Positions 661 to 31,043 of a DNA stretch of 63,442 nt are shown here, one piece after another (position 1 is the first letter of the stretch; the number at the start of each line of letters is the position of its first letter). The stretch lies in contig DHJV01000111.1 in assembly GCA_002404515.1 (NCBI GenBank), forward strand, positions 1 through 63,442, read 5' to 3'. Under the pieces are notes generated by a model that saw nothing but the letters and a program-made list of their open reading frames with translations, made no database searches and was not told where the DNA came from. A program made the translations under genes and the position numbers. Source of the stretch: Lachnospiraceae bacterium UBA4711. GTDB lineage: Bacteria > Bacillota > Clostridia > Lachnospirales > Lachnospiraceae.

Positions 661-1014
661 GTGTGCAATATGGTTGAAAATAATGTGGAGTCAGTAAGGG
701 AAAATGACCGTTATTTGGAAGCAATTATCAATCGGAAAAAGAGGACAATCCCGATTGCTTCAATCGAATATGTAGAGAGCAGAGGACGAAAAATCGTCTT
801 GCATCTGGGGTGTGGAGAGATGACATTTTATTCGAAGATTTCCGATATTGAGGAGAAACTGGTCAATAATGGATTTGTCCGTGTGCATCAGAGTTTTATG
901 GTTCGCATGGCAGATATATCGAAAATAAGCCGTACAGCTATAAAGTGTGGGAAGATAGAGGTTCCAGTGAGCCGGAGGTATTATGGGGAGTTGAGGAAAA
1001 TGGTTATGGAATAG
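661..1014 (+). CDS. Stand-alone LytTR DNA-binding domain protein (no receiver domain)
   Basis: 'IEYVES.GRK..LH...FY.K..DIEE.L...GFVRVHQSFMV...VPVSRRYY'; paralogous to the C-half of 17220..17921; GTG start after AGGAG. Confidence 0.85.
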   Translation: MCNMVENNVESVRENDRYLEAIINRKKRTIPIASIEYVESRGRKIVLHLGCGEMTFYSKISDIEEKLVNNGFVRVHQSFMVRMADISKISRTAIKCGKIEVPVSRRYYGELRKMVME

Positions 1015-1021
1015 ATAGATA

Positions 1022-1052
1022 AAAAGAGATCCGTTATATACAGATCTCTTTT
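1022..1052 (+). terminator. Rho-independent terminator
   Basis: AAAAGAGATC (1022-1031) / GATCTCTTTT (1043-1052) followed by a T-rich tract. Confidence 0.65.
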
Positions 1053-1066
1053 CGTTTTTAGGAAAA

Positions 1067-1672
1067 ATGTTAATGAAGAGGAAAATTATGGTGCGAATGA
1101 AGAATAAAAAAGGAAAAGAGAATATTATTTTTGCGATTATAGGATTGATAGGGATTATTCTGGTAATTGTTGGTGTGGTTATATTGTGGGGAGGGAAGAG
1201 AAAAACTGACACATCAACATACGGAATTACAGAACTGACAAATTCTGAGATTACACAAGAAACAGAGACAGCAACTGTTACAGTAGAAATAGAAACAACA
1301 GAAGATATGACAACGGAAGGGGAGACAACGGAGGTTATAACAACAGAGATATTTGGACAGGAAATATCCAACTCGCAGTCTTCAAAAGAATTAGATAGGG
1401 ATCAAACTTTGGTGGCAATCGAGAGATTCTGTAGGGAACAAAATCCTGATTTAAATAATATGAGTCAAGATGAGTATTCTTTTTATTGGGAACTGACATC
1501 AGAAACAGAACAGGAATATGTAGTCACATATCGCTCTTATACAGGAGCTTTTACATACTTCCATGTAAATCGAAGCACCGGAAATGTCACAACCATGGAA
1601 TATGTACCAGGGATAACGGATGGAGAAGTTCCAGGAACAGAAGAATTTCAGATTTGGGATTATATTCAATAA
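1067..1672 (+). CDS. Single-pass membrane protein: N-terminal TM, Thr/Glu-rich linker, unknown extracellular domain
   Basis: Basic N-terminus, hydrophobic 'IIFAIIGLIGIILVIVGVVILW', TE-rich linker like neighbouring FHA receptors; start uncertain. Confidence 0.7.
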   Translation: MLMKRKIMVRMKNKKGKENIIFAIIGLIGIILVIVGVVILWGGKRKTDTSTYGITELTNSEITQETETATVTVEIETTEDMTTEGETTEVITTEIFGQEISNSQSSKELDRDQTLVAIERFCREQNPDLNNMSQDEYSFYWELTSETEQEYVVTYRSYTGAFTYFHVNRSTGNVTTMEYVPGITDGEVPGTEEFQIWDYIQ

Positions 1673-1705
1673 GTATAAGAATGTGCAGGGGAAGGAGATG
1701 AAAAT

Positions 1706-4487
1706 ATGTCTGATAGATTATGCATGGGATGTATGGAAATTTATGACGATAAATATGATATTTGTCCGTATTGTGGTTATGAAGAAGGAACTCCGGCAAA
1801 AGAAGCAATTCATCTTGCACCAGGAACTGTGATTGAGAATAAATATATTGTTGGGCAGTCTATAGGAAATGGAGGATTTGGCGTTACCTATATTGGCTGG
1901 GATGCAGTGTTAAATCAGAAAATTGCAATCAAAGAATATCTTCCAAGTGAGTTTTCAACCAGAGCCATGGGCGTTTCAGATGTAACAATATTTACAGGAC
2001 AAAAAGAGGAACAATTTTTAAGTGGTGTAAATAAATTTGTGGATGAGGCACGGAGACTGGCAAAGTTTAAGGGTGTTTCAGGAATCGTGGACATACATGA
2101 TACATTTCAGGCGAATAATACTGCGTACATTATTATGGAGTATATTGATGGCGAGACACTGAAAGAAAGACTGGAGCGGGAAGGAAAAATCCCATATGAA
2201 GAAGCTTTAAAAATCATGAAGTCAGTCGTGGAAGCGTTGAAGGAAGTACATAAAGAGGGAATTTTACATCGAGATATATCGCCGGATAATATCATGATAT
2301 CCAAAGATGGTGATGTAAAAATCATAGATTTTGGTGCAGCAAGATATGCAACGACAGGACACAGCCGCAGTTTGTCAGTTCTGGTGAAGCCAGGATATGC
2401 ACCACAGGAGCAATACCGAAGCAGGGGCGATCAGGGAACATGGACGGATGTGTATGCCTGTGCGGCAACATTATATAAGATGATTACAGGTGTCACACCA
2501 GAAGATTCCATGGAGCGGGAATTGAAGGATACGCTTGTGGCACCGTCAAAGTTAGGGGTAAAAATACCAAAAGAATATAGAAAATGCAATCTTAAACGCA
2601 ATGAATCTGCGAATTGAGGATCGGACGCAGACGGCAGAAGACTTTGAAAATGATTTATTTTCGGACAAGGATGTAAAACGGAAAAAGGTTTATATAAGGA
2701 AAATGGATATAGGCAAATGGCCATTATGGGTAAAAATTGCTTCAGGAATCGGAACAGCGGCGGTTGTTACATGTATTGTGTTGCTGTTGACGGGAGTAAT
2801 TCGAGTCTCAGACATGTTCCATGGAGATAGCGGAAATCTCTCGGATGGATATGTGTACGCACCGAATATTATCAATACGGAGTTAGATGAGGCAGAGAAG
2901 AAGGTTTCAGAGGCGAAGCTCATCATGCAGATCACGGATAAGAAAAATGATTCCGTAATACCTGAAAATCTTGTGTTGACGCAAAATATTCCAGGCGGAG
3001 AAGTTGTGAAGGAAAAGACTGTCATGGCGATAGTCGTGAGTGCCGGAGAACAGGTTACATATATGCCGGACATCGAAGGATTGGAAAAAGATGCAGTTGT
3101 AGATTTGTTGATCAATATGGGATGGACGCAGGAGGATATCACGATAGAGGATAAAGAAAGTGATGTTGCACCTGGGTATGTAGCAGAGCTGGCAGTTGCA
3201 GACGGAAAAACCATTGCCTGTGGGGATGAAATTGCTGTTGGAACGAAAATGGTGATTTATATATCAACTGGTCGAAAAGATTACGACAATCAGAAACAGA
3301 CTACGGTTCCGGATGTATGCAACAAAAGCTGGGGAGAAGCTATGCAATCACTTGCATCGTCTAAACTCTACATATATAAACTGGCGACAGAATACAGTGA
3401 TACTGTTCCAAAAGGAAATATCATCAGTCAGAATCCAACGGCTAAAGAGACAATGACAGAAGGCGAAAAGGTTGGTGTTGTTGTCAGCCTTGGAAAACAG
3501 GAAGATGCAAAGATTCATGTACCAGATGTGCAGTATAAGAGCCGTGAACAGGCGATTGCAATCTTAGAGGTACAGGGACTTAAAGTGCAAACACAGGATG
3601 AAGAGAGTGACACGGTACAAAAGGATCATGTAATCAGACAGAGTGTAGAAGCAGGAACAGAGGTTGCAGGTGGAACAACGGTTATAATCTATATCAGTCT
3701 CGGAAATCCGGATGCTGTTTTGCAGTATGAGGGTACGACGGATGAGACAACAACGGAGAAAGGCAGTACGACGGAAAAGAAGGAGACAACCGAAAAACAG
3801 GATACGACAGAGCAGAACGATGACGCTGCCAATAAGGATGGAATTCCGAATGTTGTAGGTTTGCATTATTATGCTGCCAGAGATAAATTGTGGGACTGTG
3901 AACAGATAGATAATATATACGGTGGAAATATAGTGTTACTAAATGCTTACAAACCAGGAGTAGCAGATGGAATAGTATTTGCACAAAGTCCGGGATCACA
4001 GTTTAAAACGTATATTACTCAGCATTATAGTAGTGAATTTGCGAGTCCGTATCTTAATGACGACTGGTCAGATTGTTATATTTTATATGTGTCAGATAGT
4101 CGAGGTTGGACGTATTACCGATATCGGGATGTAATATCTTATGAAGAGACATCTTCAACAAACAATGTGCCACCGGATGGTTTTGAGTATTATAAAAGTG
4201 AAAATAGTGATACATACGGAGACTGGTCAGCATGGTCCGAATGGGGTGTCGATCCCGTGGCTGCGAGTGATGTATGTAATGTTGAACAGGATTCGTCAAC
4301 AGGGACGATATTGTACCGTTATCAGACGAGAGAAAAGACAACGACTACAACATATTATTTTAGAAAACCGATATATGGCGAGTGGTCAAGTTGGAGTGAA
4401 TCCCAATATTATCCAAGTGATACAAGGCAGGTAGAAGAACGATATGAAGAACATATGATACATCCAGCTTTGGGATTTTTTGCTTAG
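1706..4487 (+). pseudogene. Zn-ribbon/Ser-Thr kinase/TM/PASTA-repeat receptor kinase split by a +1 frameshift (ORFs 1706..2617 and 2601..4487)
   Basis: Intact GNGGFG, AIKE, HRDISPDN, DFG. Removing one A from the A4 run at 2569-2572 gives PKNIENAILNAMNLRIEDR, collinear with PKNKENAIMNALNIRIEDR of intact paralogue 14222..17197. Could be an assembly error. Confidence 0.85.
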
Positions 4488-4654
4488 AATTACCAGAGAT
4501 TTTGATTTGTGGAGAAAACCAGATATTGACGATGGAAGTCTCTGATGTCAGAGATACGATATTTAACAATATGAGACCGGTAAAGGGGAGAGCAGTTCAT
4601 ACCATATCATTTGAACCGGGCTCATGAGTGATTTTACGTTTACGGGGAGGAAGT

Positions 4655-5929
4655 ATGCAGGTAACAATTTGTTATGGCAACCAGAATTTGGGAAGTTATG
4701 ATCTGGAACAATTTCATAAAGAGGTAGTAAGCTTTGGCAGGCAGCCAGATAATGATATCGTGTTAAATTATGATTTCGTATCACGTGTACATGGTGTGTT
4801 TTATAAGGAAAATGGTATCTGGTATGTGCAGGATCTGAACAGTAGTAATGGTTTAATGAATAATAGTAAATTGTTAAAAAATCAAGAATTACAAGTGGGA
4901 GATATTTTGACAATTGATAGTAAAAGAAAGGAATATATACAAATTGTTGTGCAAGAAACAACAGATTCGGTTAATGACGAATCAATGCTTCGGTCAAAAA
5001 TGTATAAATTAATCTGGAAAGTTGCAATTCTATTATTATTAATGGGTGGAGTTTTAGGAGTTGTTAGATATAGGAGCAAGAACGCAGATAGACAAAGTAG
5101 TGATCAATCTAATATTGAAGGTACAGAAGGGGAAGATAGCGTAGCTTCATTACCAGATACCGAAGAAGAACAAAATGGGGGAGAAGCGGAAGCGGACCAT
5201 TATTTAAAAGTAAAAAGCGAATATTATGATTCTAATGATGAGTATACTGGAAAATGGATTTATGAATATGATTCAAATTATAATTTAAGTAGTATTAACT
5301 CTTATACAAAAGATGATCAATTAGAGGCTTCGGAAATATATGAATATGATTTGGATGGGAATACTACCTGTGAGAAATCTTGTACATATTATTCTGGTGA
5401 AACAGAAGAAACAGACACCATTTATATATATGAAAATAATAAAATGGTAAAATATTATGATCAAAAAATAGGTGGAGAGGATGTGGGATATCATGTTTTA
5501 GAATATGGAGATTCTCCGTATGCAATTAAGGAGACATATTATGATTCTATGGGAAATACTAATAGTTGGAATGAGTATGAATATGATGACAATGGAAATA
5601 ATATAAAGGATATATATTGGGTCGAGGACGGAAAGCAAGGTTATAGGTTGTGTTCAGAGACAACGAAGAAATATGAAAAGAATCAACTTATAGAGACGGA
5701 GGAGAATGTATACGATAAAGATGGTACAGTATATGAAAACGAGAGACAAACATATGAATATGATGAATACGGAAATGTTATTGAAAATGTCATTTATAAA
5801 AATGGTGAGTTGTCCAGAAGCTTTAAATGGCAGTACATATATAACGAATTTGGATTAATAGAAACAAGAAGTTATTATGTAGATGATAAGCTTTCATGGG
5901 TTGAAAAAAATGAGTATTCACTAAAGTAA
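4655..5929 (+). CDS. FHA-TM receptor with extracellular YD-like (YEYDxxGN) repeat domain
   Basis: N-terminal FHA (SFGRQ...SRVHG...DLNSSNG), one TM, repeats YEYDSNYN/YEYDLDGN/YEYDDNGN/YEYDEYGN; ATG 4655 after GGGGAGG. Confidence 0.85.
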   Translation: MQVTICYGNQNLGSYDLEQFHKEVVSFGRQPDNDIVLNYDFVSRVHGVFYKENGIWYVQDLNSSNGLMNNSKLLKNQELQVGDILTIDSKRKEYIQIVVQETTDSVNDESMLRSKMYKLIWKVAILLLLMGGVLGVVRYRSKNADRQSSDQSNIEGTEGEDSVASLPDTEEEQNGGEAEADHYLKVKSEYYDSNDEYTGKWIYEYDSNYNLSSINSYTKDDQLEASEIYEYDLDGNTTCEKSCTYYSGETEETDTIYIYENNKMVKYYDQKIGGEDVGYHVLEYGDSPYAIKETYYDSMGNTNSWNEYEYDDNGNNIKDIYWVEDGKQGYRLCSETTKKYEKNQLIETEENVYDKDGTVYENERQTYEYDEYGNVIENVIYKNGELSRSFKWQYIYNEFGLIETRSYYVDDKLSWVEKNEYSLK

Positions 5930-5972
5930 AAATATGTTTTTAGGGCACTGTTTATGAGGTAAGAGAGAAAAG

Positions 5973-6918
5973 ATGGAGTCAATGTATTATCTGCAAACAG
6001 GAACAATCATACATGGAAGATATGTGATACAGACCGTTTTAGATGAAGATGGATATGAAATTATATATAGAGCATGGGACAACATGCTTCAGGAAGAAGT
6101 ATGCATAAAGGAATATTATCCAGGAGGAGTCCGTATGTCGTGTAGATGAAAATAGTCAGGTACGTGTATATGCAGGCAGGCAAGGAAAGTATAAGCGAGG
6201 AATCGACCGTTTTTTATGGAAAGCAAGAAGATTGGCAAAACTTGATTCGGTAGAAAACATTGTTGAAGTGTATGATTATTTTGAAGAGAATAATACAGCA
6301 TATATAGTCATGGAATATGTGCAAGGTAAAACTCTCAAGAGGTTTGTAAAAGAAAATGATGGGAAAATCAGTGAAGACGTGGCAATTCATATTGCATGTT
6401 CTGTTTTAATTGCATTACAACATGTACAAGATGTGGGAATTATACTCGGAGACATTAGTCCGGATCATATTTATATATGTGAAAATCTACAAGTTGAATT
6501 AATTGCCCTCGGTATATTAACACAGGAAATTATTGAAGAAAGAAGAGGAGGAGATGCGATTTTTTTGCCAGGTTTTGAACCTCCAGAACAGTATGCACAC
6601 ACAAATCGGCAGGGGGCGTGGACAGACGTCTACTCGGTTGGCGCGATCGCGTACTATATGCTAACAGGGATAATTCCTCCGTGTTGGTTAGACAGAATAC
6701 AGATGGTAGAAATGTTGGATCCATTGGAAGAAATTGTCCCTTCAATTTCAAAGAATTTCAGCGATGCAATCATGAAAGCAATGAGTTTAAATACACGGGA
6801 TCGATTCTCGTCAGCAAAGGATTTTTTGAAAGCGTTGTTAAACGGCGAGGAGTCCCAAATAAAGAAGAAAAAAGTGCGCAGAAAAAAAGCGTTTAAGTCG
6901 AAAATCAATCGGAATTGA
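5973..6918 (+). pseudogene. Degenerate Ser/Thr pseudokinase, frameshifted (+1) near 6123
   Basis: 5973..6149 encodes a kinase N-lobe (YLQTGTIIHGRY...AWDNML...IKEYYP). The next frame continues VCRVDENSQ...RFLWKARRLAKL into ORF 6232..6918. G-loop reads LDEDGYE, HRD reads LGD, DFG reads ALG. Confidence 0.8.
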
Positions 6919-7029: not shown

Positions 7030-7071
7030 GAACGGACATTTTGAACCTGAAAAAGGAGAATGCTTGGAAAT

Positions 7072-8382
7072 ATGCAAATTGTTATTAAGTATGCAGATAA
7101 AAAAATAGAAAGTCACATTTTAGAACAGTTCAATAAAGAAGTTGTAAGCTTTGGAAGACAGCTGAACAATGATATTATACTTGATTTGGATTTTATATCG
7201 AGAATACATGGCGTATTTTTTATGGAAGACGGAACATGGCATGTACAGGATCTGGACAGTACGAATGGATTGCTTGTAAATGGAACCTATATTGACCAGC
7301 CATATGCGATCAAAGAGGGGGATTGCATTTGTATACAGAGAAAAGATGGGGAAGAAAGTATAAGCATATATATCAGCGAATCAGAGCAAGCGAAGCTGGA
7401 TAAGGCCAGATCCCCTAAGAAGCTGGTTATTATTTTGAGTGTGATATGTGTATTGCTGGCAGCATTTATAGTTTCGTTGATTATTTACGCAACACACAGA
7501 GATTCGTCAGAGAAGGAAACGGCGACACCAACGGATGCTTCAACGGAGACAGAGGGAGCAACGGAAACAGAGGAACCAACAACTGTGACAACAACCGAGG
7601 CGGAAACTACGACGGAAGAAGTACAAGAAACAACGGAAGAAACAACAGAAGAAACGGTTACAACAGAAACCGTACAGAATGAGGTTTCGGAAACAGATTT
7701 CCCGGTAGAAAATAGTGTAGGCGGGTTGAGTTATTCGGAGGCGGCTAAGGATCAAGACCAGCATTTTTTCGTGGAACATAATGACTGCTATTATCCAATG
7801 ACAAACAGCGAATGCTTTGATGAGAACATGGTATCGTTAAAAATCAGGTTTGTGGGAGAAAATTTTGAATATGCCCAAGTGCATGTCGGTGACAAAATTG
7901 TTGGATTTGATGGTATGCATGGATTTAAATCCATATCAATTATTAATAGTGAAGGATATTCTGTTCCTCAGGAATTCGTTACATATGATGATGGTACAGT
8001 AGAGTTTCACAAGAGCAGTTTTAATTCATCCTTATACTACGACAAGTGTTTTATTACGACGAATAAAATATTTAAAATTAATGATGAGGATGCAAATAGG
8101 ATAACAGATTATGTAGAAATTGGAGATGGATGGCCTACATACAAATTTTTGTATTATGCAGAGCCAACGAATATTGAATTAACATATTATAAGAATTACG
8201 AGCAGGTAGTAAAAACAGTTTCTGTAGATAAGAAATGTTTTTTGTTGGGAGATAAGTATAAGGCTGATTACCAAGAGGCTCCAGAAGGGTATTTTTATTA
8301 TGACACATCGAATCTTCCACTTGGGAAATATGTAATTAATGCGATGGCAGGCGTGCAGTTTGCTATTGAAGTAGTTGAATAA
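7072..8382 (+). CDS. FHA-TM receptor with Thr/Glu-rich stalk and unknown extracellular domain
   Basis: FHA (VVSFGRQ..NDI...SRIHG...DLDSTNG), TM 'LVIILSVICVLLAAFIVSLIIYA', TE-rich linker; start chosen by homology to paralogues. Confidence 0.85.
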   Translation: MQIVIKYADKKIESHILEQFNKEVVSFGRQLNNDIILDLDFISRIHGVFFMEDGTWHVQDLDSTNGLLVNGTYIDQPYAIKEGDCICIQRKDGEESISIYISESEQAKLDKARSPKKLVIILSVICVLLAAFIVSLIIYATHRDSSEKETATPTDASTETEGATETEEPTTVTTTEAETTTEEVQETTEETTEETVTTETVQNEVSETDFPVENSVGGLSYSEAAKDQDQHFFVEHNDCYYPMTNSECFDENMVSLKIRFVGENFEYAQVHVGDKIVGFDGMHGFKSISIINSEGYSVPQEFVTYDDGTVEFHKSSFNSSLYYDKCFITTNKIFKINDEDANRITDYVEIGDGWPTYKFLYYAEPTNIELTYYKNYEQVVKTVSVDKKCFLLGDKYKADYQEAPEGYFYYDTSNLPLGKYVINAMAGVQFAIEVVE

Positions 8383-8416
8383 AAACTTGTTTTTAAACAG
8401 TGGAGTAACGTTTGAT

Positions 8417-10246: not shown

Positions 10247-10999
10247 ATGATTACATATAAAATATATTCGGATATAGGAAAACGTGAAGTGAACGAAGAT
10301 AGTGTTGGTGAACAGGAAAAGGACGGAAATTATTTGTTTGTTTTAGCGGATGGCCTGGGTGGACATGGACACGGAGAATGTGCATCAAATCTGGCTGTGA
10401 CAACTTCTTCGGAAATGTTCCATGGGGAGTATTTTCAGGGGAAAAATGAAAAAGAATTTCTGGCACAATGCTTTGACTGTGCGCAGGATATTATCACGAT
10501 GTCACAGAAGGAGACACGCGAATATGCAGATATGAAGACAACGATGGTGCTGCTTCTGATTTCGGGAAATCGTGCTTATTGGGGACATATAGGAGATTCC
10601 AGATTATATTATTTTAAGAAAAATAAGATGGTTACGCGGACGCTGGATCACAGTGTCCCACAAATGCTTGTCAGCACTGGAGAAATCAAAGAAAAGGATA
10701 TTCGTGGACATGAGGATCGGAGCAGGTTGCTTCGGGTTGTGGGGAGTCCGTGGATGAATGGACATGCGTATGATATCTCGGAAGGGATAGATTTAAACAA
10801 GTCACAGGCTTTTTTACTTTGTTCGGATGGATTCTGGGAGCAGATCACGGAAAAAGAGATGATGCAGTGTCTGAAGAAGGCGGATACGGTAGATGCGTGG
10901 CTTGATCGCATGGTTGAGATAGTGAACGAGAACGGAAAAGGGTCGGATATGGACAACAATTCGGCGATTGCGGTATGGGTAGAGCCGGAGAATAAATAA
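10247..10999 (+). CDS. PP2C/PPM-family Ser/Thr phosphatase
   Basis: GKREVNED, VLADGLGGH, TT, HIGDSR, DHS, LLCSDG, DNNS motifs; AAGGAGG RBS. Confidence 0.95.
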   Translation: MITYKIYSDIGKREVNEDSVGEQEKDGNYLFVLADGLGGHGHGECASNLAVTTSSEMFHGEYFQGKNEKEFLAQCFDCAQDIITMSQKETREYADMKTTMVLLLISGNRAYWGHIGDSRLYYFKKNKMVTRTLDHSVPQMLVSTGEIKEKDIRGHEDRSRLLRVVGSPWMNGHAYDISEGIDLNKSQAFLLCSDGFWEQITEKEMMQCLKKADTVDAWLDRMVEIVNENGKGSDMDNNSAIAVWVEPENK

Positions 11000-17921: not shown

Positions 17922-17932
17922 GGAGAATGAAA

Positions 17933-18363: not shown

Positions 18364-18407
18364 GATCTCAACACGAAATAAGAACCAATATGAGGGAGGT
18401 CATTCAT

Positions 18408-20286: not shown

Positions 20287-20328
20287 ACCACATGGGATTG
20301 TCTGGGTCAGGCAGTCCCATATGGTGGT
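20287..20328 (+). terminator. Stem-loop after the CHAP gene (terminator or processing hairpin)
   Basis: ACCACATGGGATTGTCTG pairs with CAGGCAGTCCCATATGGTGGT, then a short T run. Confidence 0.5.
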
Positions 20329-20356
20329 TTTAGGGAAAGTGAGGAAATCCGGGTGT

Positions 20357-23115: not shown

Positions 23116-23120
23116 GAGAT

Positions 23121-24392
23121 ATGACAGATTCAACAGTCGAATTAAAAAGTCAGCTGTGTCTGAATGGAAAATACATAATACAGCATACACTTGGCGTTGG
23201 AGGATTCGGAATTACATATGCGGCGTATGATATGGAGGCAAAACGAAACTGCGCTGTGAAGGAACTGTTTCCACAGGGAATCGTAATGAGAACGATGGAT
23301 GGAATGAACGTAGCGGTTGTATCGTCCGATAAGCAGGAGACGTTTGAGCATAGTAAGGAACGTTTTTTAGAAGAAGCAGAAATCCTTCAAAGTCTGAATC
23401 CAGTCAAGGAAGTAGTTTCGGTATATGACTTTTTCATGGAGAATGGAACGTGCTATTTCGTTATGGAATATCTGGAAGGGGTGACCTTGCGTAAGCTTGT
23501 GAAGATGTCCGGAAATGGCCTTCCATATGATGTTGTGATGGACACAGTGAGGAAGCTGGGACATGCACTGGTTATCGTGCATCAGCATAATTTCTTTCAC
23601 AGAGATATCAGCCCGGACAACATTATCGTGACAGGAAATGGAGAGGTAAAGCTGATTGATTTTGGAAATGCCAAGACGCTTTCACAGGACGCAAATCAGA
23701 AATTATCCGTAGTATTAAAGCCAGGGTTTGCACCGCTGGAACAATATTCATTGCATGGAAAGCAGGGTACATATACCGATGTCTATTCTCTGGCGTGTAC
23801 AATTTATTATATGATGACAGCCAAGAAGATACCGGATGCACTGGATCGTACAAAGGGAAAGACCTATCAGAAATTAAAGGAATTCGGATATCCGGCATTT
23901 GTCTCCGATACGATAGATAAAGCACTTGCGATTAAGTACACAGAACGTATACAGACGGTAAGTACTTTTTTGAAATGTCTGGGGTTGGCAGATGATCAAA
24001 ATATTCCGAAGGATCAGAAGGCATGGCTGACAAAGTATGTGCACAAAGTCCCGGAACCTCAGCCGTCCGCTGCGAAAAGATATATACAGATTCTTCAGGT
24101 AGGAAAAGCAGAAGTAAAATACGATCTTCCGGACAATAAGGGAATCACAATAGGGAGAGTTGCACAGTTTTGCGATATTGCGGTTGAGGGCGATCCGCAT
24201 ATAAGCAAAAAGCATTGTGAAGTGATATATGATGCAAAGGGAAGAAGATTTTTAGTGTTAGATCAGTCATCCAATGGATTATATATTAATGGACAAAAAC
24301 TTCCACATGGTCAGCCGGTAATGATAAAACCAGGGCAACTGATTATGCTTGGCAGTAATAGCAGTGGATTTAAGGTAGGTGAAAAGGTATGA
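23121..24392 (+). CDS. Soluble Ser/Thr kinase with C-terminal FHA domain
   Basis: GVGGFG, AVKE, HRDISPDN, DFG; no TM; FHA IGRV..CDI...ISKKHC...DQSSNG. Confidence 0.92.
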   Translation: MTDSTVELKSQLCLNGKYIIQHTLGVGGFGITYAAYDMEAKRNCAVKELFPQGIVMRTMDGMNVAVVSSDKQETFEHSKERFLEEAEILQSLNPVKEVVSVYDFFMENGTCYFVMEYLEGVTLRKLVKMSGNGLPYDVVMDTVRKLGHALVIVHQHNFFHRDISPDNIIVTGNGEVKLIDFGNAKTLSQDANQKLSVVLKPGFAPLEQYSLHGKQGTYTDVYSLACTIYYMMTAKKIPDALDRTKGKTYQKLKEFGYPAFVSDTIDKALAIKYTERIQTVSTFLKCLGLADDQNIPKDQKAWLTKYVHKVPEPQPSAAKRYIQILQVGKAEVKYDLPDNKGITIGRVAQFCDIAVEGDPHISKKHCEVIYDAKGRRFLVLDQSSNGLYINGQKLPHGQPVMIKPGQLIMLGSNSSGFKVGEKV

Positions 24393-25234
24393 CAGAAGAG
24401 GCTAGAAAGCAGAGAGATGTGACAACCGTCCGTTTTGAGAGAGATGTAGATATTGACAGCTTATTGGAGGCTTCGAATGCGTTGCATATAAATATGGGGA
24501 TATCCAGTATTTTAGGAACGAGGAAAAATCAACAGGATACCGTGTTTGGAGCGGTAGATGGAAATCGTGCGATTGCAGTTGTCTGTGATGGTATGGGAGG
24601 TATGAATGGTGGTGAACTCGCAAGTCAGACAGCGGCAACTATTCTGATTGATGATTATTACAACACGACGATCACAGATATGCGCGAGTTCTTTCAAAAA
24701 GAAGCGAAGAAGATGGATCAGGCAGTCAATAATCTGAAAAATGAAGATGGAAGACCACTGAATGGAGGAACGACTGTCGTTGCGGTTGTGATTGAAAACA
24801 ATCAAATGTATTTTTTGTCGGTAGGAGACAGCAAAATATATATACTGCGTGACAATGAAATCCTTGCAGTAAACCGGGAGCATAATTATCGGTTGAGTCT
24901 GGATGAGAAACTGAAAAAAGGGCAGATTACAAAGGAGCAATATATCGCAGAAGAAGATCAGGCAGAGGCACTGATCAGTTATCTGGGTATGGGAAATGTA
25001 TCCCTGATGGATATTAACAACGAACCATTTATACTGCAGGAAAATGATATTGTTTTGCTTTGCAGTGATGGATTATATAAGCGATTGCCAGATAAGGATA
25101 TCATGCAGATTATTCAGCTTGAGGAACCGGATATGAATCGTGCAGCACGCAGATTGACAGATGTAGTTATGATGCGCACACGAAAAAATCAGGATAATAC
25201 ATCGCTGGTGCTGATGCAATATAGCAGACACTAG
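24389..25234 (+). CDS. PP2C/PPM-family Ser/Thr phosphatase
   Basis: GTRKNQQD, VCDGMGG, GGTT, VGDSK, LCSDG, QDNTS. Confidence 0.95.
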   Translation: MTEEARKQRDVTTVRFERDVDIDSLLEASNALHINMGISSILGTRKNQQDTVFGAVDGNRAIAVVCDGMGGMNGGELASQTAATILIDDYYNTTITDMREFFQKEAKKMDQAVNNLKNEDGRPLNGGTTVVAVVIENNQMYFLSVGDSKIYILRDNEILAVNREHNYRLSLDEKLKKGQITKEQYIAEEDQAEALISYLGMGNVSLMDINNEPFILQENDIVLLCSDGLYKRLPDKDIMQIIQLEEPDMNRAARRLTDVVMMRTRKNQDNTSLVLMQYSRH

Positions 25235-25267
25235 GATGATATCATAAATTATTAGGAGGATAAAAGG

Positions 25268-26014
25268 ATGAATTTAAAGAGATGTAGCAATGGACATTTT
25301 TATGATGTGGATAAGTACGCAACCTGTCCACATTGTGCAGGTGCAAGCGGGGTTGATGACAGTATGGCAAGTACAGTTGCATATGGAGCGTCAGATGCAA
25401 CGGTTGGGTATACGGTTCCTGATAATCAGGGAGCAACGCTTGGTAGTACGGTTGCTTATGATGGAAATGCAGGAAATATGGGAATCTCATTGATGAGTGA
25501 GCAGAGCATTCCTACAACACCAAACAATGGCGCAACAAAAGCAGGAAGTCTGGAGGGCTGGCTGAAGGATCATTCACAGGATACAACTTCTGGCTGGAAT
25601 GCCCCGGATGAGGATGATCAAAAGACACAGAGACATTCTTCTCTGGACAGCAATGTAGAACCGGTTGTTGGCTGGCTGGTTTGCTTGAATGGTGAAGATG
25701 CAGGTAAGAGCTTTACGTTGAAGTCTGGAAGAAACTTTATTGGACGAGGTGCAGACATGGATGTTGTTTTGTCTGGCGACATGAGCGTATCCAGAGAAAA
25801 GCATGCAATCATTTTGTATGAGCCAAAGAAACGTGTATTCCTGGCACAGCCGGGAGAGTCCAAGGAATTGTTCTATGTGAATGATGAAGTTGTATTAAAT
25901 GTTACAAGTCTGAATGCATATGACAAGATTGCAATTGGAAATACCGAATTATATTTTGTTCCGTTCTGCGGAGAGGTATTTGCATGGGAGGACTTGGGTA
26001 AGGTAAATGAGTAG
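25268..26014 (+). CDS. N-terminal Zn-ribbon + Thr-motif linker + FHA protein
   Basis: CSNGHFYD...CPHC; repeated STVAY/ATVGY; GWLV...FIGRG...VSREKH. Confidence 0.9.
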   Translation: MNLKRCSNGHFYDVDKYATCPHCAGASGVDDSMASTVAYGASDATVGYTVPDNQGATLGSTVAYDGNAGNMGISLMSEQSIPTTPNNGATKAGSLEGWLKDHSQDTTSGWNAPDEDDQKTQRHSSLDSNVEPVVGWLVCLNGEDAGKSFTLKSGRNFIGRGADMDVVLSGDMSVSREKHAIILYEPKKRVFLAQPGESKELFYVNDEVVLNVTSLNAYDKIAIGNTELYFVPFCGEVFAWEDLGKVNE

Positions 26015-28301
26015 TGGATTTTATCAGAACCTATGTGTAACTGTATTTGATGGAGAAAGACCCAGCTATGAGGTGCGGCTTGCAAGCGTAGGGAAGGATG
26101 TAATCAGTTTTGGAAGGCAGTCAGATTGTGATATTGTGCTGACTTCGGAGTATGCATCGCGTATCCATGGATGTATTTATATGCAGGATGGAAAATGCTA
26201 TATCGAAGATATGAACAGTACAAACGGGCTGTTATATCATGGAAAACGAGCAAAACGCGTGCATGTGACAGACGGGGATTACATTCGGATTATTGCGCAG
26301 AAAAAGGATGCAGCAAAAGGGGTATTGTTTGTTTTTTCGGTTCAAAAACAGGAACAAAAATGGGTAAAATATGATCTTTCACAACTTGCATCGAAAGAAC
26401 GTATTACCCTGGGACGAGATGAGACGAATGATATCTGTCTGAAACATGTGAGTATTTCGCATAAACATGCGGAAGTGATGAGATACGGATCAGACTTTAT
26501 TCTTCGGGATTTAAACAGCACAAATGGTGTATATGTCAATGGGAAGAAAATACATGATAAAGTAAAGCTCCGGGATAAAGATTTTATTTTGATCTCTCAT
26601 ACGAGAATCATTTATGCAAATGGGACACTTTCCTATGTCTGTGCAAGAAATGGAATTTCTGTACAGGTCAGGAACGTGCAGAAACGTGTTGGAAAACATA
26701 AGGATATTACCATTTGTGATCATGTAAATTTGAGGATTGCGCCGGGAGAACTGGTTGCAATTATTGGTGGTTCCGGTGCCGGGAAATCAACATTGATGAA
26801 TTGTATCAGTGGCTATAGTAAACCGACAGCAGGAGAGGTACTTGTAAATGAAGTTGGACTGTATCAGAATTTCGATATGCTGAAGCATATTATTGGCTAT
26901 GTTCCGCAACAGGATATTGTATACGATAATCTGACGGTATATTCCATGCTATATTATTCTGCAAAACTTCGCTTGCCAAAGGATGTAAAGGACGAGGAAC
27001 TGCATGCAATCGTGGATAAAGTGATTGATACAGTGGAACTGACAGAACGCAAGGACACGTTTGTACGAAATCTTTCTGGTGGACAACGTAAGCGGGCAAG
27101 TATTGCTGTGGAGTTATTGACCGATCCAAAGCTGTTCTTCCTGGATGAACCGGCTTCCGGGCTGGATCCTGGAACGGAGCGGAGTCTGATTCGGACATTG
27201 AAGGGAATGACAGTTTCAGGTAAGACAGTTATTCTGGTTACACACAGTACTTTGAATCTGGATATGTATGACAAAATTGTATTTATGGGAACTGGTGGAA
27301 AATTGTGCTTTAGCGGAACATATCAGGAGGCATTGGCGTTTTTTCAGACAGAAGATATTGTTGATGTGTACGAGATGATCAGTAAACATGCTAGTTTCTG
27401 GCAAAAGCGGTATACTGAAAAGGTGAATGCGCAGAACATGTCTGGGGATAGTTCAAACAGTGAGAAAATTAGAAAATCATCAAAAAAGGGGGTTGTCAGA
27501 CAGTTTGGTGTTTTAAGTGCAAGATATATAAAATTGATGTTAAACGACAGACAACGTATGATATTGCTGTTGTTACAGGCCCCGTTACTGGCATATCTGA
27601 TCACACTTGTCGCAAATGGAAAGGAATTTGAACAGTATGAAGTTACGAAGAGTTTATTGTTTGCGCTTTCCTGTTGTGGTTTCTGGATTGGAATTTTAAG
27701 TTCCATTCAGGAGATTTGTAAAGAACGCAATATTTTGAAGCGGGAATATATGACGGGATTAAATTTGTGCAGTTATATTCTCAGCAAGGTAGTAGTATTG
27801 GGACTTTTATGTCTGATCCAGACATTATTGATCGTGACAACATTTACTGCTTTGTTGAAATATCCCGGGGAGGGAATCTGCATGCCCGCATATCTGGAAT
27901 ATTGTATGACGACATGGGGAACGGCTATGGCAGCGGCTGCTATAGGACTGTTTGTGTCGTCGCTGTTCTCAAATGCGGATCGGGCGATGACCGTGGCTCC
28001 AATTCTTCTTATGCCACAAATTCTGTTTTCTGGAGTCATCTTTAATCTGGAGGATGCTACGGAAGTTGTATCGTATTTGACTGTGTGTCGATGGTCGATG
28101 GAAGGATATGGCTCAACGGCAAATCTGAATGATTTGAAGTTAAAGATGCAGGATCAGGGGTTTGAAATTGTACATAAGGCAGAGGATTTCTTTACACATA
28201 ATCTGCAGCATATACTAACAGTCTGGGGAATCCTGTTATTGTTTATCGTAGGATTTTCTATTGCGTCAGGTCTTGTATTACGAAGACTGAGAAAAGTTTA
28301 G
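26007..28301 (+). CDS. 2xFHA-ABC ATPase-ABC2 permease fusion exporter
   Basis: Two FHA domains; GGSGAGKST, LSGGQ, FFLDE, VTH; about six C-terminal TMs. Architecture as in Mycobacterium Rv1747. Confidence 0.93.
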   Translation: MSSGFYQNLCVTVFDGERPSYEVRLASVGKDVISFGRQSDCDIVLTSEYASRIHGCIYMQDGKCYIEDMNSTNGLLYHGKRAKRVHVTDGDYIRIIAQKKDAAKGVLFVFSVQKQEQKWVKYDLSQLASKERITLGRDETNDICLKHVSISHKHAEVMRYGSDFILRDLNSTNGVYVNGKKIHDKVKLRDKDFILISHTRIIYANGTLSYVCARNGISVQVRNVQKRVGKHKDITICDHVNLRIAPGELVAIIGGSGAGKSTLMNCISGYSKPTAGEVLVNEVGLYQNFDMLKHIIGYVPQQDIVYDNLTVYSMLYYSAKLRLPKDVKDEELHAIVDKVIDTVELTERKDTFVRNLSGGQRKRASIAVELLTDPKLFFLDEPASGLDPGTERSLIRTLKGMTVSGKTVILVTHSTLNLDMYDKIVFMGTGGKLCFSGTYQEALAFFQTEDIVDVYEMISKHASFWQKRYTEKVNAQNMSGDSSNSEKIRKSSKKGVVRQFGVLSARYIKLMLNDRQRMILLLLQAPLLAYLITLVANGKEFEQYEVTKSLLFALSCCGFWIGILSSIQEICKERNILKREYMTGLNLCSYILSKVVVLGLLCLIQTLLIVTTFTALLKYPGEGICMPAYLEYCMTTWGTAMAAAAIGLFVSSLFSNADRAMTVAPILLMPQILFSGVIFNLEDATEVVSYLTVCRWSMEGYGSTANLNDLKLKMQDQGFEIVHKAEDFFTHNLQHILTVWGILLLFIVGFSIASGLVLRRLRKV

Positions 28302-28327
28302 GCAGGAGACACGGAGAGGAGACGAAT

Positions 28328-29260
28328 ATGGATATTATAGTAGTTGATCCAAATGGAAATCAGAGAAAATATAATATTGAAGCTTTTCAAAAAGAAGTTG
28401 TAAGCTTTGGACGGCAGCCAGATAATGATATTGTTTTTAATTATGATTTTGTGTCGCGTGTGCATGGTGTGATATATCGTGAGGGAATACAGTATTATAT
28501 AGAAGATATGAACAGTACAAATGGAATCTATGTAAATGGAAGCAGGACGAAGCGGGCAAAATTGAACATGGGAGATAGCATAGTGCTCGCACGTTCTTTA
28601 AAAGATGAAAGCCGGATTCAGATGTCGGTGGGTGACAATGTGGTAGTGCAACAAACATATGTACAACCATATCAGCAACCAGTTTATACAAATGGAAGCG
28701 GTGCATATGGAAATATTGTGCAGCAACAGCCGATGGCTTGGTATAAATTTATTATTTACTTTCAACTGTTTTTTGCCGCATTTTTTAGTGGAATGCTTGC
28801 GTTTATGGCATTTTCTACTGTTTCAAATATGAAAGATACAAGACCTAATATGCAATATTTGGAATGGGCAGATGATTTGCTTGATTCTAGCTATTCGGAC
28901 AGTATTGATTCTATTATAATACAGTATGTAATTCTAGGAGTATTGGCGGCAGTTACAGCAGTTATTTGCATAGTGGTACGAAATGAGTTGGCAGAATTTA
29001 AAGCCAGCGGTCCAAGAAATTATTATTTGGTTAATTTTATGATTGCAGCATGTTTATGCTTGTATGGTGCAATTGTATTTCAGCTTGCTTTTATCGAGCA
29101 AAATACATATATGTGGATTGAAAATGGTGGAGATGCAATGAGTGATGATGTGAAAGGTGCAATTTCGCTCTGTAGTGGAGTGATTATGGCAATAACAGGA
29201 TCTTATGTAGTGTTGAATAAATTGTATTTTGAGAGAAGAAAACATTTATTTACAAGGTAG
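28328..29260 (+). CDS. FHA + four-TM membrane protein
   Basis: FHA KEVVSFGRQPDNDIVFNYDFVSRVHGV (nearly identical to 4655 gene); 'PMAWYKFIIYFQLF' and TMs; C-terminal YFERRKHLF. Confidence 0.87.
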   Translation: MDIIVVDPNGNQRKYNIEAFQKEVVSFGRQPDNDIVFNYDFVSRVHGVIYREGIQYYIEDMNSTNGIYVNGSRTKRAKLNMGDSIVLARSLKDESRIQMSVGDNVVVQQTYVQPYQQPVYTNGSGAYGNIVQQQPMAWYKFIIYFQLFFAAFFSGMLAFMAFSTVSNMKDTRPNMQYLEWADDLLDSSYSDSIDSIIIQYVILGVLAAVTAVICIVVRNELAEFKASGPRNYYLVNFMIAACLCLYGAIVFQLAFIEQNTYMWIENGGDAMSDDVKGAISLCSGVIMAITGSYVVLNKLYFERRKHLFTR

Positions 29261-29282
29261 ATAAAAAGAGGAATGCATAGAC

Positions 29283-30287
29283 ATGAATATCAAAAAGTGT
29301 GAGCGAGGACATTTTTATAATGGGGACAAATATCAAACGTGTCCCCATTGCAAGGAAACAGAGACGGTAAAAGATATCCATCAAAATGAGGAGACAAAAC
29401 CGGTACATGGTTATCAGATTGATGAAAATATGCCGGAAACAATCGCATATGGAAGAAATGCAACAGTGGGTGATACGGTTGCATATACATCAAGCGATGC
29501 GGGCATGAAAGGCGAGTTTTTATATCAGAACGAGGATATGGCTCCTCAAAAACAGCAGCCAGTTGTACAGCAGGAGCATGTCCAGAATTTACTTCCGGTA
29601 GGATGGCTGGTGGCAGTATCCGGATTGGAATACGGGAAACAATATCCGATATTTACCTGTGACAATTTTATTGGAAGTAGTGCAGAAAATACTATTTGTA
29701 TACAGGGAGACGCATATGTTTTGCCAGAACACCATTGCACACTGTCGTTTGATATAATGCAGCAGAAGATTGTTTTGAACTTGGAAAGCTCAACTGGGGA
29801 AATCAATGTAAACGATGTGCGTGTAATGGAGAGCTGTTATTTGAATCATAAGGATAAAATCCAAATAGGTGGTTCTGTATACATGTTGATTGAGTTGTGC
29901 AGAGATGGGTTTTCCTGGTGGAACACTTTGCCTGTACAGGAGCAAAAAAAGACGGATCAGATTAATGATATTGACCTTGCCTTTTCGGAAGAACAGAGTA
30001 CAGGCATGAATTTAAATATGGAGGATATTCGGGCCAAGATGCGGGTACGACATTCTGTGGCATTTGCTCCACAGAAGATGCCAATATTGGCAGAGAGTAA
30101 TATGCAGGATGTCGCTTCAATGAGGGCTGGAGAGACAAGCGTTCTTATGGGGGATGGTATGATGGATATGTCTGATCTTCAGGAGACAAACGTTCTGGCA
30201 GCGTCTACATGGAGATGTGCGATGTGTAATGGATTAAATTCGGAATTCGCAAAAGTCTGTATGATATGTGGAGCAAAGAGGGTTTAG
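29283..30287 (+). CDS. Zn-ribbon + degenerate FHA + C-terminal RanBP2-type zinc finger
   Basis: CERGHFYN...CPHC; GWLV..FIGSS (no GR); WRCAMCNGLNSEFAKVCMIC fits W-x-C-x2-C-x3-N-x6-C-x2-C. Confidence 0.82.
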   Translation: MNIKKCERGHFYNGDKYQTCPHCKETETVKDIHQNEETKPVHGYQIDENMPETIAYGRNATVGDTVAYTSSDAGMKGEFLYQNEDMAPQKQQPVVQQEHVQNLLPVGWLVAVSGLEYGKQYPIFTCDNFIGSSAENTICIQGDAYVLPEHHCTLSFDIMQQKIVLNLESSTGEINVNDVRVMESCYLNHKDKIQIGGSVYMLIELCRDGFSWWNTLPVQEQKKTDQINDIDLAFSEEQSTGMNLNMEDIRAKMRVRHSVAFAPQKMPILAESNMQDVASMRAGETSVLMGDGMMDMSDLQETNVLAASTWRCAMCNGLNSEFAKVCMICGAKRV

Positions 30288-30371
30288 ATGAAATATCCAT
30301 CTAGTTATTTTCCTGCATTTACGTTATAATAAAGATAATTTTCAAATGAATAACATAACCGAGGTTAAATT

Positions 30372-31043
30372 ATGAATATCAGAAAATGTGAAAATGGTCA
30401 TTATTATAACGGAGACAGATACAAAATCTGCCCATATTGTGAGGAAGCGAATCTCCTGAAAAATCCAGACACTGTGAAGCAGGAGAATGTAAAAAAGGAA
30501 AAGGCAGATAAGAAGAAAGAACCGAAGGTTCGTCCGGTTAAGAAAAAATATGTGGAGAAGGATATCCGCCAGGATTATCGGAAATTGACAGAACTTCTGA
30601 TTGAATGGAACATGTCAATTACCACGATGGAGAGTGCAACTGCTGGGCAGATTGCGTCTCTGATTACGGATACGGAAGGGGCATCTGCCATCTTCAAAGG
30701 TGCAAGCATCACATATAGCAATGAGACGAAGATTATGCAGGGTGTGTCCGCAGAGGTGATTCATAAGTATACGGTGTATTCAAAGGAGACAGCGGAGGCG
30801 ATGGCGACCGCCTGCGCCAACATGTATGGTGCGGACATCGGAATTGGAGTCACCGGAACGATGGGAAATACAGATCCGGACAATGTGGATGCATCAGTTC
30901 CGGGACAGGTTTATTTTGCGATAAGCCTGAAAGGTACTGTCCGGTCCTATGTTGTCGAGATTCCACAGCAGCCAAGTAGGTTGATGTACAAACTGGCGGT
31001 GGCAAAGGAAGTCTATGATGTATTGATGAGATTGTTTGAGTAA
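30372..31043 (+). CDS. Zn-ribbon fused to CinA C-terminal / PncC (NMN amidohydrolase) domain
   Basis: CENGHYYN...CPYC; TMESATAG, EGAS, TYSNETK, MA..., GVTG motifs of CinA/PncC. Confidence 0.85.
   Translation: MNIRKCENGHYYNGDRYKICPYCEEANLLKNPDTVKQENVKKEKADKKKEPKVRPVKKKYVEKDIRQDYRKLTELLIEWNMSITTMESATAGQIASLITDTEGASAIFKGASITYSNETKIMQGVSAEVIHKYTVYSKETAEAMATACANMYGADIGIGVTGTMGNTDPDNVDASVPGQVYFAISLKGTVRSYVVEIPQQPSRLMYKLAVAKEVYDVLMRLFE

Follow-up and report, generated by a model that had tools for sequence, protein, structure and literature searches.

A Clostridial cluster of Ser/Thr kinases, PP2C phosphatases and FHA proteins that may link surface sensing to the cell envelope

We describe here a block of genes, referred to below as the island, that occupies positions 661-31043 of a 63,442-nt stretch of DNA from Lachnospiraceae bacterium UBA4711. 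The stretch, which we call the window, opens contig C2 of a metagenome-assembled genome (MAG) that is 82% complete and comprises 170 contigs. Our analysis indicates that the island is probably a lineage-specific expansion, now in partial decay, of a conserved operon that is sporadically distributed in Clostridia and encodes a membrane-associated phospho-Thr signalling complex linking surface sensing to envelope outputs. Each building block of the cluster has a characterised analogue, yet the cluster fails the defining tests of each known system. An initial annotation, made from the sequence alone, had recognised no characterised system in the block, and our literature search likewise gave no description of this Clostridial operon, with the reservation that the supplements of PMC7159879, PMC13622651 and PMC11217815, which the search did not cover, might list such loci.

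Domain calls were made with Pfam and NCBIfam on the open reading frames (ORFs) of positions 661-31043. The island holds 24 ORFs, all on the plus strand, whose neighbours are spaced by -37 to +141 nt and overlap in six pairs; the run of about 24 overlapping plus-strand genes that was first reported is thus upheld. So is most of the inventory given with it: two PP2C phosphatases, twelve FHA genes (carrying 13 FHA domains), an FHA-bearing ABC exporter, a vWA receptor, a CHAP hydrolase and two LytTR proteins. Five Hanks-kinase genes were found, as had been claimed; three of them are intact, and the other two are a split gene and a pseudogene. Inside the island, the numbers of sites resembling terminators (10 where 9.1 are expected, and 15 where 8.0 are) and of sites resembling promoters (71 where 67.8 are expected, and 53 where 46.4 are) stay at chance level. 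The genes on which the argument below depends are the following; elsewhere in the text a gene may be named by its first position.

10247..10999, plus strand: PP2C phosphatase 'a', Stp1/IreP-like (NCBIfam NF033484, E=2.5e-51; DGLGG, CSDG and DNNS motifs)
11015..12022, plus strand: membrane protein with four transmembrane (TM) helices and a canonical FHA domain at its C-terminus (TM-FHA; Pfam, topology, motifs)
12039..14207, plus strand: receptor kinase with Zn-ribbon, Hanks kinase, one TM helix and MalE-like solute-binding ectodomain (kinase-SBP; Pfam Pkinase E=2.9e-30, SBP_bac_8 E=1.6e-8)
14222..17197, plus strand: receptor kinase with Zn-ribbon, Hanks kinase, one TM helix, 5 PASTA repeats and a C-terminal domain (kinase-PASTA; Pfam, NCBIfam, topology)
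17220..17921, plus strand: response regulator, receiver plus LytTR (Pfam)
17927..18295, plus strand: small FHA protein that stands alone, its gene 5 nt downstream of the regulator gene (Pfam, motifs)
18390..20276, plus strand: secreted CHAP peptidoglycan hydrolase with Bsp-like repeats and an N-terminal hydrophobic segment (Pfam CHAP E=1e-11; GBS_Bsp-like E=4.7e-23)
20321..20950, plus strand: Zn-ribbon-FHA adaptor 1 (ZnFHA1; Pfam, topology)
20914..23115, plus strand: receptor with signal/TM segment, Thr/Glu-rich linker, vWA domain with DxSxS, beta-rich region, one TM helix and cytoplasmic canonical FHA domain (vWA-TM-FHA; Pfam, topology)
23109..24392, plus strand: soluble Hanks kinase with C-terminal FHA domain, lacking Zn-ribbon and TM helix (kinase-FHA; Pfam, topology, motifs)
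24389..25234, plus strand: PP2C phosphatase 'b' (NCBIfam NF033484, E=6.5e-41; motifs)
25268..26014, plus strand: Zn-ribbon-FHA adaptor 2, a folded Zn-ribbon, a disordered linker of about 100 residues with conserved Thr120, and a GarA-like FHA domain (ZnFHA2; Pfam, alignment, AF2)
26007..28301, plus strand: ABC exporter with two N-terminal FHA domains, nucleotide-binding domain (NBD) and ABC-2 membrane domain, the Rv1747 architecture (Pfam: two FHA stretches, ABC_tran, ABC2_membrane)
28328..29260, plus strand: FHA protein with four C-terminal TM helices (Pfam, topology)
29283..30287, plus strand: Zn-ribbon-FHA paralog 3, with a degenerate FHA domain and a second Cys-rich motif at its C-terminus (ZnFHA3; Pfam, motifs)

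The case for a conserved operon rests on gene order and on recurrence of the components. When 60 relatives were searched with the vWA-TM-FHA protein, 5 of them proved to have an ortholog. The conserved order that the initial annotation had proposed to look for was seen in all four same-genus genomes examined (4/4), as PP2C / TM-FHA / kinase-SBP / kinase-PASTA / receiver-LytTR / small FHA / CHAP / (ZnR-FHA) / vWA-TM-FHA / kinase-FHA / PP2C / ZnR-FHA / 2xFHA-ABC / FHA-TM, and a condensed nine-gene form is found in other families, including the one genome of another family among the hits. Pfam analysis of 87 ORFs from 5 distant loci gave the core order PP2C / ZnR-FHA / vWA-TM-FHA / kinase-FHA / PP2C / ZnR-FHA / TM-FHA / kinase-X / kinase-PASTA or 2xFHA-ABC; in the locus of a Coriobacteriia MAG, these genes are followed downstream by a LytTR regulator, a PP2C and a RicinB-CHAP protein.

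A wider set of 53 loci was obtained by scanning one genome per species with the vWA-TM-FHA protein, a match being required to cover the vWA part, and the ORFs of these loci were classed by best BLAST match to the island proteins (with at least 60% coverage for the ABC exporter and at least 30% identity for the LytTR regulator). The counts that follow are floors, since contigs end and the flanks searched were of 10 kb or less. A PP2C is present in 53/53 loci and a kinase in 52/53; PP2C 'b' in 48, ZnFHA2 in 47 and ZnFHA1 in 43; kinase-FHA and PP2C 'a' in 35 each, kinase-PASTA in 34, TM-FHA in 33 and kinase-SBP in 29; the small FHA protein in 17, the ABC exporter in 15, the LytTR regulator in 12, CHAP in 9 and PncC in 2, both of the latter in near-identical relatives. 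Among island-like genes next to vWA-TM-FHA, ZnFHA1 precedes it in 42/53 loci and a kinase follows it in 45/53. The shared core order, with kinase-SBP in the position given as kinase-X above, together with the presence of a PP2C in every locus and of a kinase in all but one, argues that the cluster is not a chance pile-up. The taxa represented include Lachnospiraceae, Eubacterium, Family XIII, Acutalibacteraceae, Ruminococcus, Faecousia and Peptococcaceae, as well as one Coriobacteriia and one Gastranaerophilaceae MAG, and the cultured carriers are Butyribacter intestini TF01-11, Anaerostipes sp. 992a and Senimuribacter DSM 106208.

The operon is sporadic. With a vWA-TM-FHA relative at an E-value of 1e-20 or better as the distribution marker, it was detected in 12/59 genus genomes (one of them partial), in 17/401 family genomes (our own genome counted; about 10 full length) and in 7/399 class genomes; tblastn with vWA-TM-FHA gave no match in plasmids or phages. 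In G009, a complete genus genome that lacks the cluster, synteny with the window runs from the U32 peptidase gene to about position 32,537 and is followed by a type IV pilus operon, while in G001 and G021 the cluster lies on another contig than this housekeeping block. The synteny break and the separate contigs suggest that the cluster is an accessory element that moves or rearranges. GC content is 40.1% in the island as opposed to 45.2% in the adjoining housekeeping genes, and GC at third codon positions (GC3) is 37.8% as opposed to 47.6%.

A Zn-ribbon of the pattern C-x2-C or C-x2-G-H, a gap, and C-P-x-C stands at the N-terminus of seven island proteins: the TM kinases 1706, 12039 and 14222, the three Zn-ribbon-FHA proteins and the PncC protein described below. 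Ten of the 13 FHA domains retain the canonical phospho-Thr-binding residues (GR / SxxH / N). In the adaptors, a Thr is found 15 residues (+/-1) before the G-W-L-V anchor of the FHA domain in 39/42 ZnFHA1 and 39/44 ZnFHA2 proteins, set in a context of an acidic run, K/R, T, V/I, any residue and Y/F. In the alignment of 44 ZnFHA2 sequences, the Zn ligands do not vary at all, and T120 is kept in 90% or more of the sequences. The motif T-[VIL]-[AGS]-[YF] occurs 24, 37 and 15 times in ZnFHA1, ZnFHA2 and ZnFHA3, against 1.4, 1.6 and 0.2 expected, an enrichment that overstates the independence of the evidence, since the motif was defined after it had been sighted in the window proteins and the orthologs are related to one another; it is not enriched in the kinase-FHA, PP2C or vWA-FHA proteins. 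The orthologs of ZnFHA1 align from residue 13 onward, and the start of that gene is therefore probably near 20357.

The AF2 model of ZnFHA2 has a Zn-ribbon at pLDDT 92-94, an FHA domain at 96-98 and a disordered linker. Its FHA domain has GarA, OdhI and FhaA as nearest solved folds (TM-score 0.83-0.90, normalised to the target). Matches to ZnFHA2 in the ESM Atlas were unnamed FHA clusters, and a search for homologous proteins gave 9 relatives with 'FHA domain-containing protein' as their sole name. We also observed that ZnFHA2 orthologs have a conserved tail after the FHA domain (residues 228-240), in which F230, P232, C234, F238 and W240 are kept either without exception or in 90% or more of the sequences.

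The sensory side of the cluster consists of domains that lie outside the cell by predicted topology, in keeping with the envelope or extracellular sensing first suggested for it. The vWA domain is taken to be extracellular from its placement between the signal/TM segment and the TM helix. The ectodomain of kinase-SBP was modelled by AF2 at a mean pLDDT of 91, and Foldseek places MalE-type binding proteins at the top of its matches (TM-score 0.67-0.73, normalised to the model). Towards the 5' side of the island lies a more variable set of genes, which includes further receptor-like proteins and the two broken kinase genes.

1706..2617, plus strand: Zn-ribbon plus Hanks kinase with K/HRD/DFG intact, 303 residues, the N-terminal part of a split kinase-PASTA paralog (matches residues 1-289 of 14222 at 82% identity)
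2601..4487, plus strand: TM helix, 4 PASTA repeats and C-terminal domain, the C-terminal half of the split kinase (Pfam PASTA E=1.9e-43; 47% identity to residues 299-868 of 14222)
4628..5929, plus strand: variable receptor-like protein with N-terminal FHA domain, one TM helix and a Tyr/Asp-rich repeat ectodomain (Pfam, topology)
5973..6918, plus strand: kinase pseudogene with one frameshift near 6123-6133 (HRD reads LGD, DFG reads ALG)
7060..8382, plus strand: FHA-TM-ectodomain protein, 71% identical to 8375 in its FHA/TM part, with an unrelated ectodomain (Pfam, topology)
8375..10141, plus strand: FHA-TM-ectodomain protein, the ectodomain without an assigned family (Pfam, topology)

Ectodomains diverge far faster than the cytoplasmic modules. 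Over 8 genus-level loci, the median identity of the vWA receptor is 29% in the ectodomain and 71% in its own FHA domain, and that of the PASTA kinase is 46% in the ectodomain and 79% in the kinase domain; the FHA domain of ZnFHA2 stands at 80%. The ectodomain of 4628 is swapped in related strains (joint 4851 to 6051). For the ectodomain of 8375, the ESM Atlas gave leads only, with scores of 0.88 or less. Metal-binding motifs are intact in both PP2Cs, and PP2C 'a' is 61-67% identical to its orthologs in relatives. Long Thr/Glu-rich linkers, with repeats of the T-T-E-K type, follow the membrane anchors of 20914-23115, 7060-8382, 8375-10141, 1067-1672 and 14222-17197; these may be wall-spanning or glycosylated stalks.

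K, HRD and DFG are retained in four of the five island kinase domains. The island kinases are only about 31% identical to the housekeeping PrkC, which has no Zn-ribbon. Judged from their sequences, ORFs 1706 and 2601 are a single kinase-PASTA gene, evidently broken by a +1 insertion: taken together they align end to end with the 991-residue kinase 14222, and the split is attributable to the fourth A in the run 2569-2572. In 4/4 contigs from metagenome runs (related strains, 90-99% alike) there is one base fewer at 2569 and the fusion is whole, with no further gap within 2440-4509. The related MAG G061, 96% identical here, has three A's at this site and an extra G 43 nt upstream, which yields the same stop codon and the same downstream ATG as the insertion in the window. 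We observed, then, two distinct +1 insertions (window 2527-2528 and 2569-2572 compared with L104, G061:C39, 2520-2685) in a 160-nt stretch that is otherwise identical, and both sever the kinase from the PASTA sensor at the juxtamembrane region; they may represent a recurrent uncoupling of kinase and sensor, or an assembly error. Gene 5973-6918 is by our reading a pseudogene with a frameshift; it is mostly gone in G061 and in the contigs of runs X2 and X8 (joint 5932 to 6726). The small ORF 6146-6253 was rejected as spurious, one frameshift rather than two accounting for 5973-6918. The C-terminal ends of the island PASTA kinases (16610-17197 and 4000-4487) form a conserved Trp/Ser/Tyr-rich domain of about 190 residues that has no Pfam match and that is also present in a few relatives (L032, L034, L036, L043 and L046), and not in the housekeeping PrkC.

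Three kinds of candidate output accompany the core. Residues 1-215 of the exporter have as their best match in the Protein Data Bank (PDB) the FHA domain of Rv1747 (6cah, E=8.8e-8), and the ArnA FHA domain is also among the PDB sequence matches of this region; for the whole exporter, PDB matches were limited to ABC NBDs. The kinase-FHA gene lies three genes 5' of the exporter gene. The response regulator and the small FHA protein recur as a unit in relatives. No HATPase_c or HisKA domain was matched by Pfam in the island, while in the distant locus L074 a GHKL kinase gene stands next to its regulator on the opposite strand. The acceptor Asp59 of the regulator is kept here and is a Glu in three distant orthologs (L053, L068 and L071), which fits control of the regulator by means other than His-Asp transfer. 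A classical LytTR two-component system was considered and rejected for the island: regulator 17220 is present, with no adjacent cognate histidine kinase. The export and wall-hydrolysis outputs proposed initially are recurrent; they are not universal. The NAD-salvage output proposed with them was not supported, in view of the two near-identical relatives to which PncC is confined.

From these features, we propose the following scheme for the operon. Three kinds of ectodomain would sample the surface: PASTA for wall fragments, the MalE-like domain for an oligosaccharide-type ligand, and vWA/MIDAS for a protein or glycan ligand. The Zn-ribbon receptor kinases would autophosphorylate, and vWA-TM-FHA, TM-FHA and the variable FHA-TM-ectodomain proteins, of which the FHA domain alone would be inside the cell, would dock on phospho-Thr and recruit the soluble kinase-FHA. 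The arrangement would amount to a PpkA-like vWA receptor kinase split in two and rejoined through FHA/phospho-Thr docking. The kinases would phosphorylate the conserved linker Thr and so switch the Zn-ribbon-FHA adaptors in the manner of GarA and OdhI. Outputs would be the 2xFHA-ABC-2 exporter, gated in the way that PknF acts on Rv1747, and the LytTR regulator with the small FHA protein, and via these the CHAP hydrolase; envelope remodelling would be the net effect, and the two PP2Cs would reset the system.

Comparison with known systems brings out both the analogies and the differences. The exporter resembles that of the PknF/Rv1747 pair of M. tuberculosis in having two N-terminal FHA domains, an NBD and an ABC-2 membrane domain in one polypeptide, beside Hanks kinases; it differs in being one of about nine core genes, in the minority of loci given above, and in its short inter-FHA linker. 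PknF regulates Rv1747 positively (PMC3138270), and the sites T152 and T210 of Rv1747 lie in a non-structured linker (PMC8339232). GarA and OdhI of Actinobacteria, the closest solved folds to the ZnFHA2 FHA domain, likewise have a disordered N-terminal segment with a kinase-target Thr ahead of the FHA domain, whereas the proteins described here begin with a Zn-ribbon and have their Thr in an acidic-K/R-T-V/I context rather than in ETTS, 15 residues ahead of the domain. The PpkA/PppA/Fha1 unit of the Pseudomonas H1 type VI secretion system (H1-T6SS) also combines an extracytoplasmic vWA, a Hanks kinase, a PP2C and an FHA reader. PpkA, however, has kinase and vWA in one polypeptide (PMC1262709), while here the vWA (20914-23115) and the kinase (23109-24392) are separate, each with an FHA domain, in a Gram-positive host; no T6SS family was present in the Pfam matches of 26 island proteins, in which matches to TagH were to the FHA domain alone and below the model cut-off.

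In Sulfolobus acidocaldarius, a zinc-finger-FHA gene (ArnA) lies beside a vWA gene (ArnB), under control of Hanks kinases (ArnC,D) and a phosphatase (PMC6509490). But ArnB has a cytoplasmic vWA, and the vWA here is extracellular on a protein with its own TM helix and FHA domain; the ArnB-type C-terminal helix bundle, phosphorylated and FHA-bound, is not present, the C-terminus of our vWA protein being the FHA domain itself. The zinc ligands are C-H-C-C here and four Cys in the RanBP2-type finger of the Arn module, the Arn phosphatase is PP2A and not PP2C, and there is no archaellum. The Esr system of Actinomycetales and the vWA-MoxR ternary systems share with the cluster a vWA, a kinase/phosphatase pair, an FHA output protein, often zinc fingers, and diversified sensors (PMC13622651 and PMC7159879). 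Unlike these, the island has by Pfam no MoxR ATPase, beta-propeller EsrA, transglutaminase or Esx gene, and no AAA/MoxR match was obtained in the island or in the 5 distant loci. The operon DRA0331-DRA0334 of Deinococcus radiodurans also assembles a vWA, a Ser/Thr kinase, an FHA and a PP2C; it differs in comprising four genes, in the fusion of FHA to PP2C, in having no receptor kinases, exporter or Zn-ribbon-FHA proteins, and in its tie to the DNA-damage response (bioRxiv 10.64898/2026.01.23.701218). Finally, a variant of type VII secretion was rejected, as no EssC/TsxC FtsK-like ATPase or WXG100 protein was among the Pfam matches (features according to PMC11217815).

Several of our own observations weigh against the envelope-signalling complex as proposed. 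The outputs on which it calls (ABC exporter, LytTR regulator and CHAP) are not universal, to the extent that contig ends and the short flanks do not hide some of them. The sporadic spread within genus, family and class shows that the system is dispensable, and would fit a conflict or niche role equally. Two of the five kinase genes are broken in this copy. The usual binding-loop Asn is missing from ZnFHA1 and ZnFHA2, and the FHA domain of ZnFHA3 is degenerate, without the Arg of GR and the Ser of SxxH; the Thr-motif enrichment is to be read with the reservation already given. In the exporter, only about 30 residues separate the FHA domains, which lie at about residues 33-100 and 133-196; the corresponding linker of Rv1747 is unstructured and phosphorylated.

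How far other readings account for the same material can be judged from these data. That the island is an accidental pile of duplicated signalling genes with no joint function is barely credible: the many paralogs, the pseudogene and the split gene would be expected of it, but gene order is held across several families at 24-40% protein identity, and the genes are tightly packed or overlapping. We think it quite unlikely that this is a second, paralogous cluster for growth or division control, tuning peptidoglycan synthesis in growth, chaining or sporulation like PrkC/Stp or the mycobacterial FhaA-FhaB-PstP-RodA-PbpA-PknA-PknB cluster. The actinobacterial cluster of that name has FtsW/RodA and a penicillin-binding protein (PBP) in the operon and is near-universal in its lineage. 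PASTA kinases, Stp1-like PP2Cs and a CHAP hydrolase are indeed present, and the membrane FHA proteins match the FhaB/FipA model weakly; yet Pfam found no FtsW/RodA, PBP or division gene in the island, a canonical prkC-rsgA-rpe operon exists apart from it, with a kinase as divergent from those of the island as described above and devoid of their Zn-ribbon, and some four fifths of the genus genomes that were searched gave no match to the cluster, which one would hardly expect of a growth-control core. On the first and last of these grounds, the actinobacterial division cluster was also rejected as an identity for the island. The MalE-like fold raises the prospect of a nutrient relay, in which the kinase ectodomain would report a dietary or host glycan and switch GarA-like adaptors governing metabolism or transport, as in GlnH-PknG-GarA/OdhI; the GarA/OdhI-like FHA domain with its disordered putative phospho-linker and the GlnH-PknG-GarA precedent in Actinobacteria (PMC5448819 and PMC9769921) speak for it. 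This we consider very unlikely, given that the core is not accompanied by conserved metabolic enzymes or importers, that kinase-SBP is in little more than half of the 53 loci, and that vWA, PASTA and the ABC-2 exporter point to the envelope.

Possible, but in our judgement unlikely, is a role in sensing surface threats, in which fast-evolving receptors would detect phage adsorption, epibionts or competitors, and a phospho-relay would trigger a protective envelope change or lysis, akin to Esr or to control of the Pseudomonas H1-T6SS by Thr phosphorylation. Patchy distribution, GC content below that of the neighbouring housekeeping genes, the position at a synteny break beside a PD-(D/E)XK_2 gene where G009 has a type IV pilus operon, the divergence of the ectodomains, and strain-level replacement and decay in the variable arm would all be consistent with it, and Esr senses epibionts with a vWA, a kinase/phosphatase pair, an FHA output protein and often zinc fingers (PMC13622651). 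On the other side, PADLOC 2.0 gave domain-level matches only, to kinase (PD-T4-6, mad6), ABC (mad3, mad8, AriA) and PP2C (PDC-M21C) models, and neither any match for 15 of the 24 proteins nor any system-specific component; Pfam shows no MoxR, beta-propeller sensor, nuclease, other toxic effector or secretion system in the island; tblastn found no plasmid or phage copy; and relaxed constraint could equally give fast divergence of ectodomains. If the defence reading were true, it would add a new class of surface-sensing systems. A broader and more speculative form of it, which we hold to be improbable, would make the cluster an innate-immunity-like surveillance system of the cell surface in Gram-positive gut bacteria, with interchangeable fast-evolving receptors (vWA-TM-FHA and FHA-TM-ectodomain proteins) that carry no intracellular domain but FHA and plug by phospho-Thr docking into a shared kinase/PP2C hub, and with Zn-ribbons tagging the hub kinases and the output adaptors with their FHA or PncC heads; contact with phage, epibiont or competitor would lead to envelope remodelling, controlled lysis or changes in the NAD pool. 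Such a modular receptor-adaptor-effector logic would, if confirmed, be one not yet described for Firmicutes.

The remaining genes and borders of the island are listed here.

242..511, plus strand: holin (Phage_holin_5_2, Hol44-type; Pfam E=2.4e-24), 150 nt 5' of the first island gene
661..1014, plus strand: LytTR DNA-binding protein that has no receiver domain; the LytTR half of 17220 is 45% identical to it (Pfam)
1067..1672, plus strand: single-pass membrane protein with Thr/Glu-rich linker and small ectodomain, no family match (topology)
30372..31043, plus strand: Zn-ribbon fused to a PncC (NMN deamidase-type) domain (TIGR00199, E=1.9e-23)
31046..31089, strand '.': bidirectional intrinsic terminator with an 18-bp stem, between convergent genes

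Since window position 1 is also the first base of the contig, the left edge of the island is out of view. A holin gene is also found upstream in G061, and whether holin 242-511 is a member of the island is uncertain. The contig begins about 240 nt before this gene, and that of G061 ends at nearly the same spot, which suggests a repeat or prophage end upstream of the holin. At the right edge, the strong closing terminator described initially was confirmed. The gene just before it had been called a CinA/PncC fusion; the PncC domain stands, but it is joined only to a Zn-ribbon and there is no full CinA. The N-terminus of this protein is 58% identical over 31 residues to that of 29283, and from its sequence and its occurrence the PncC protein appears to be a local addition to the island. 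Beyond the terminator, PD-(D/E)XK_2 'transposase-family' nuclease genes (31093-32526 and 34002-35153, both minus strand) flank a sigma-70 family gene (32492-33226, plus strand). A bactofilin-domain protein of 386 residues (51780-52940, minus strand) lies inside the housekeeping block (pyrH, frr, uppS, cdsA, dxr, rseP, ispG, polC). The housekeeping PASTA kinase prkC (61177-63396, minus strand) is where the initial annotation had placed a separate one, in prkC-rsgA-rpe context, upstream of rsgA, rpe and a thiamine pyrophosphokinase gene. The same annotation had called the island self-contained, which did not survive a search of the whole genome: there are 12 Pkinase and 22 FHA matches in all, with 6 Hanks kinases and 9 FHA matches beyond the island, so that the island is not the sole such module of the organism. 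An 859-residue frame with two FHA matches (G000:C2:96769-97275, minus strand) lies about 33 kb past the window end, and more kinase/FHA pairs are present on contigs C100, C162, C48 and C130.

Ser/Thr phospho-signalling in Firmicutes is understood mostly through a single PrkC/Stp pair. The cluster described here is a conserved multi-receptor FHA-based circuit, with two PP2Cs, two to three kinases, a vWA receptor and GarA-like adaptors, and its carriers are gut and rumen Clostridia that include cultivable strains. If the envelope-signalling reading that we favour is correct, the cluster would offer a defined candidate phospho-site, a natural example of a receptor kinase assembled non-covalently by FHA docking, and a candidate route by which commensals may sense wall fragments, glycans or surface contact.

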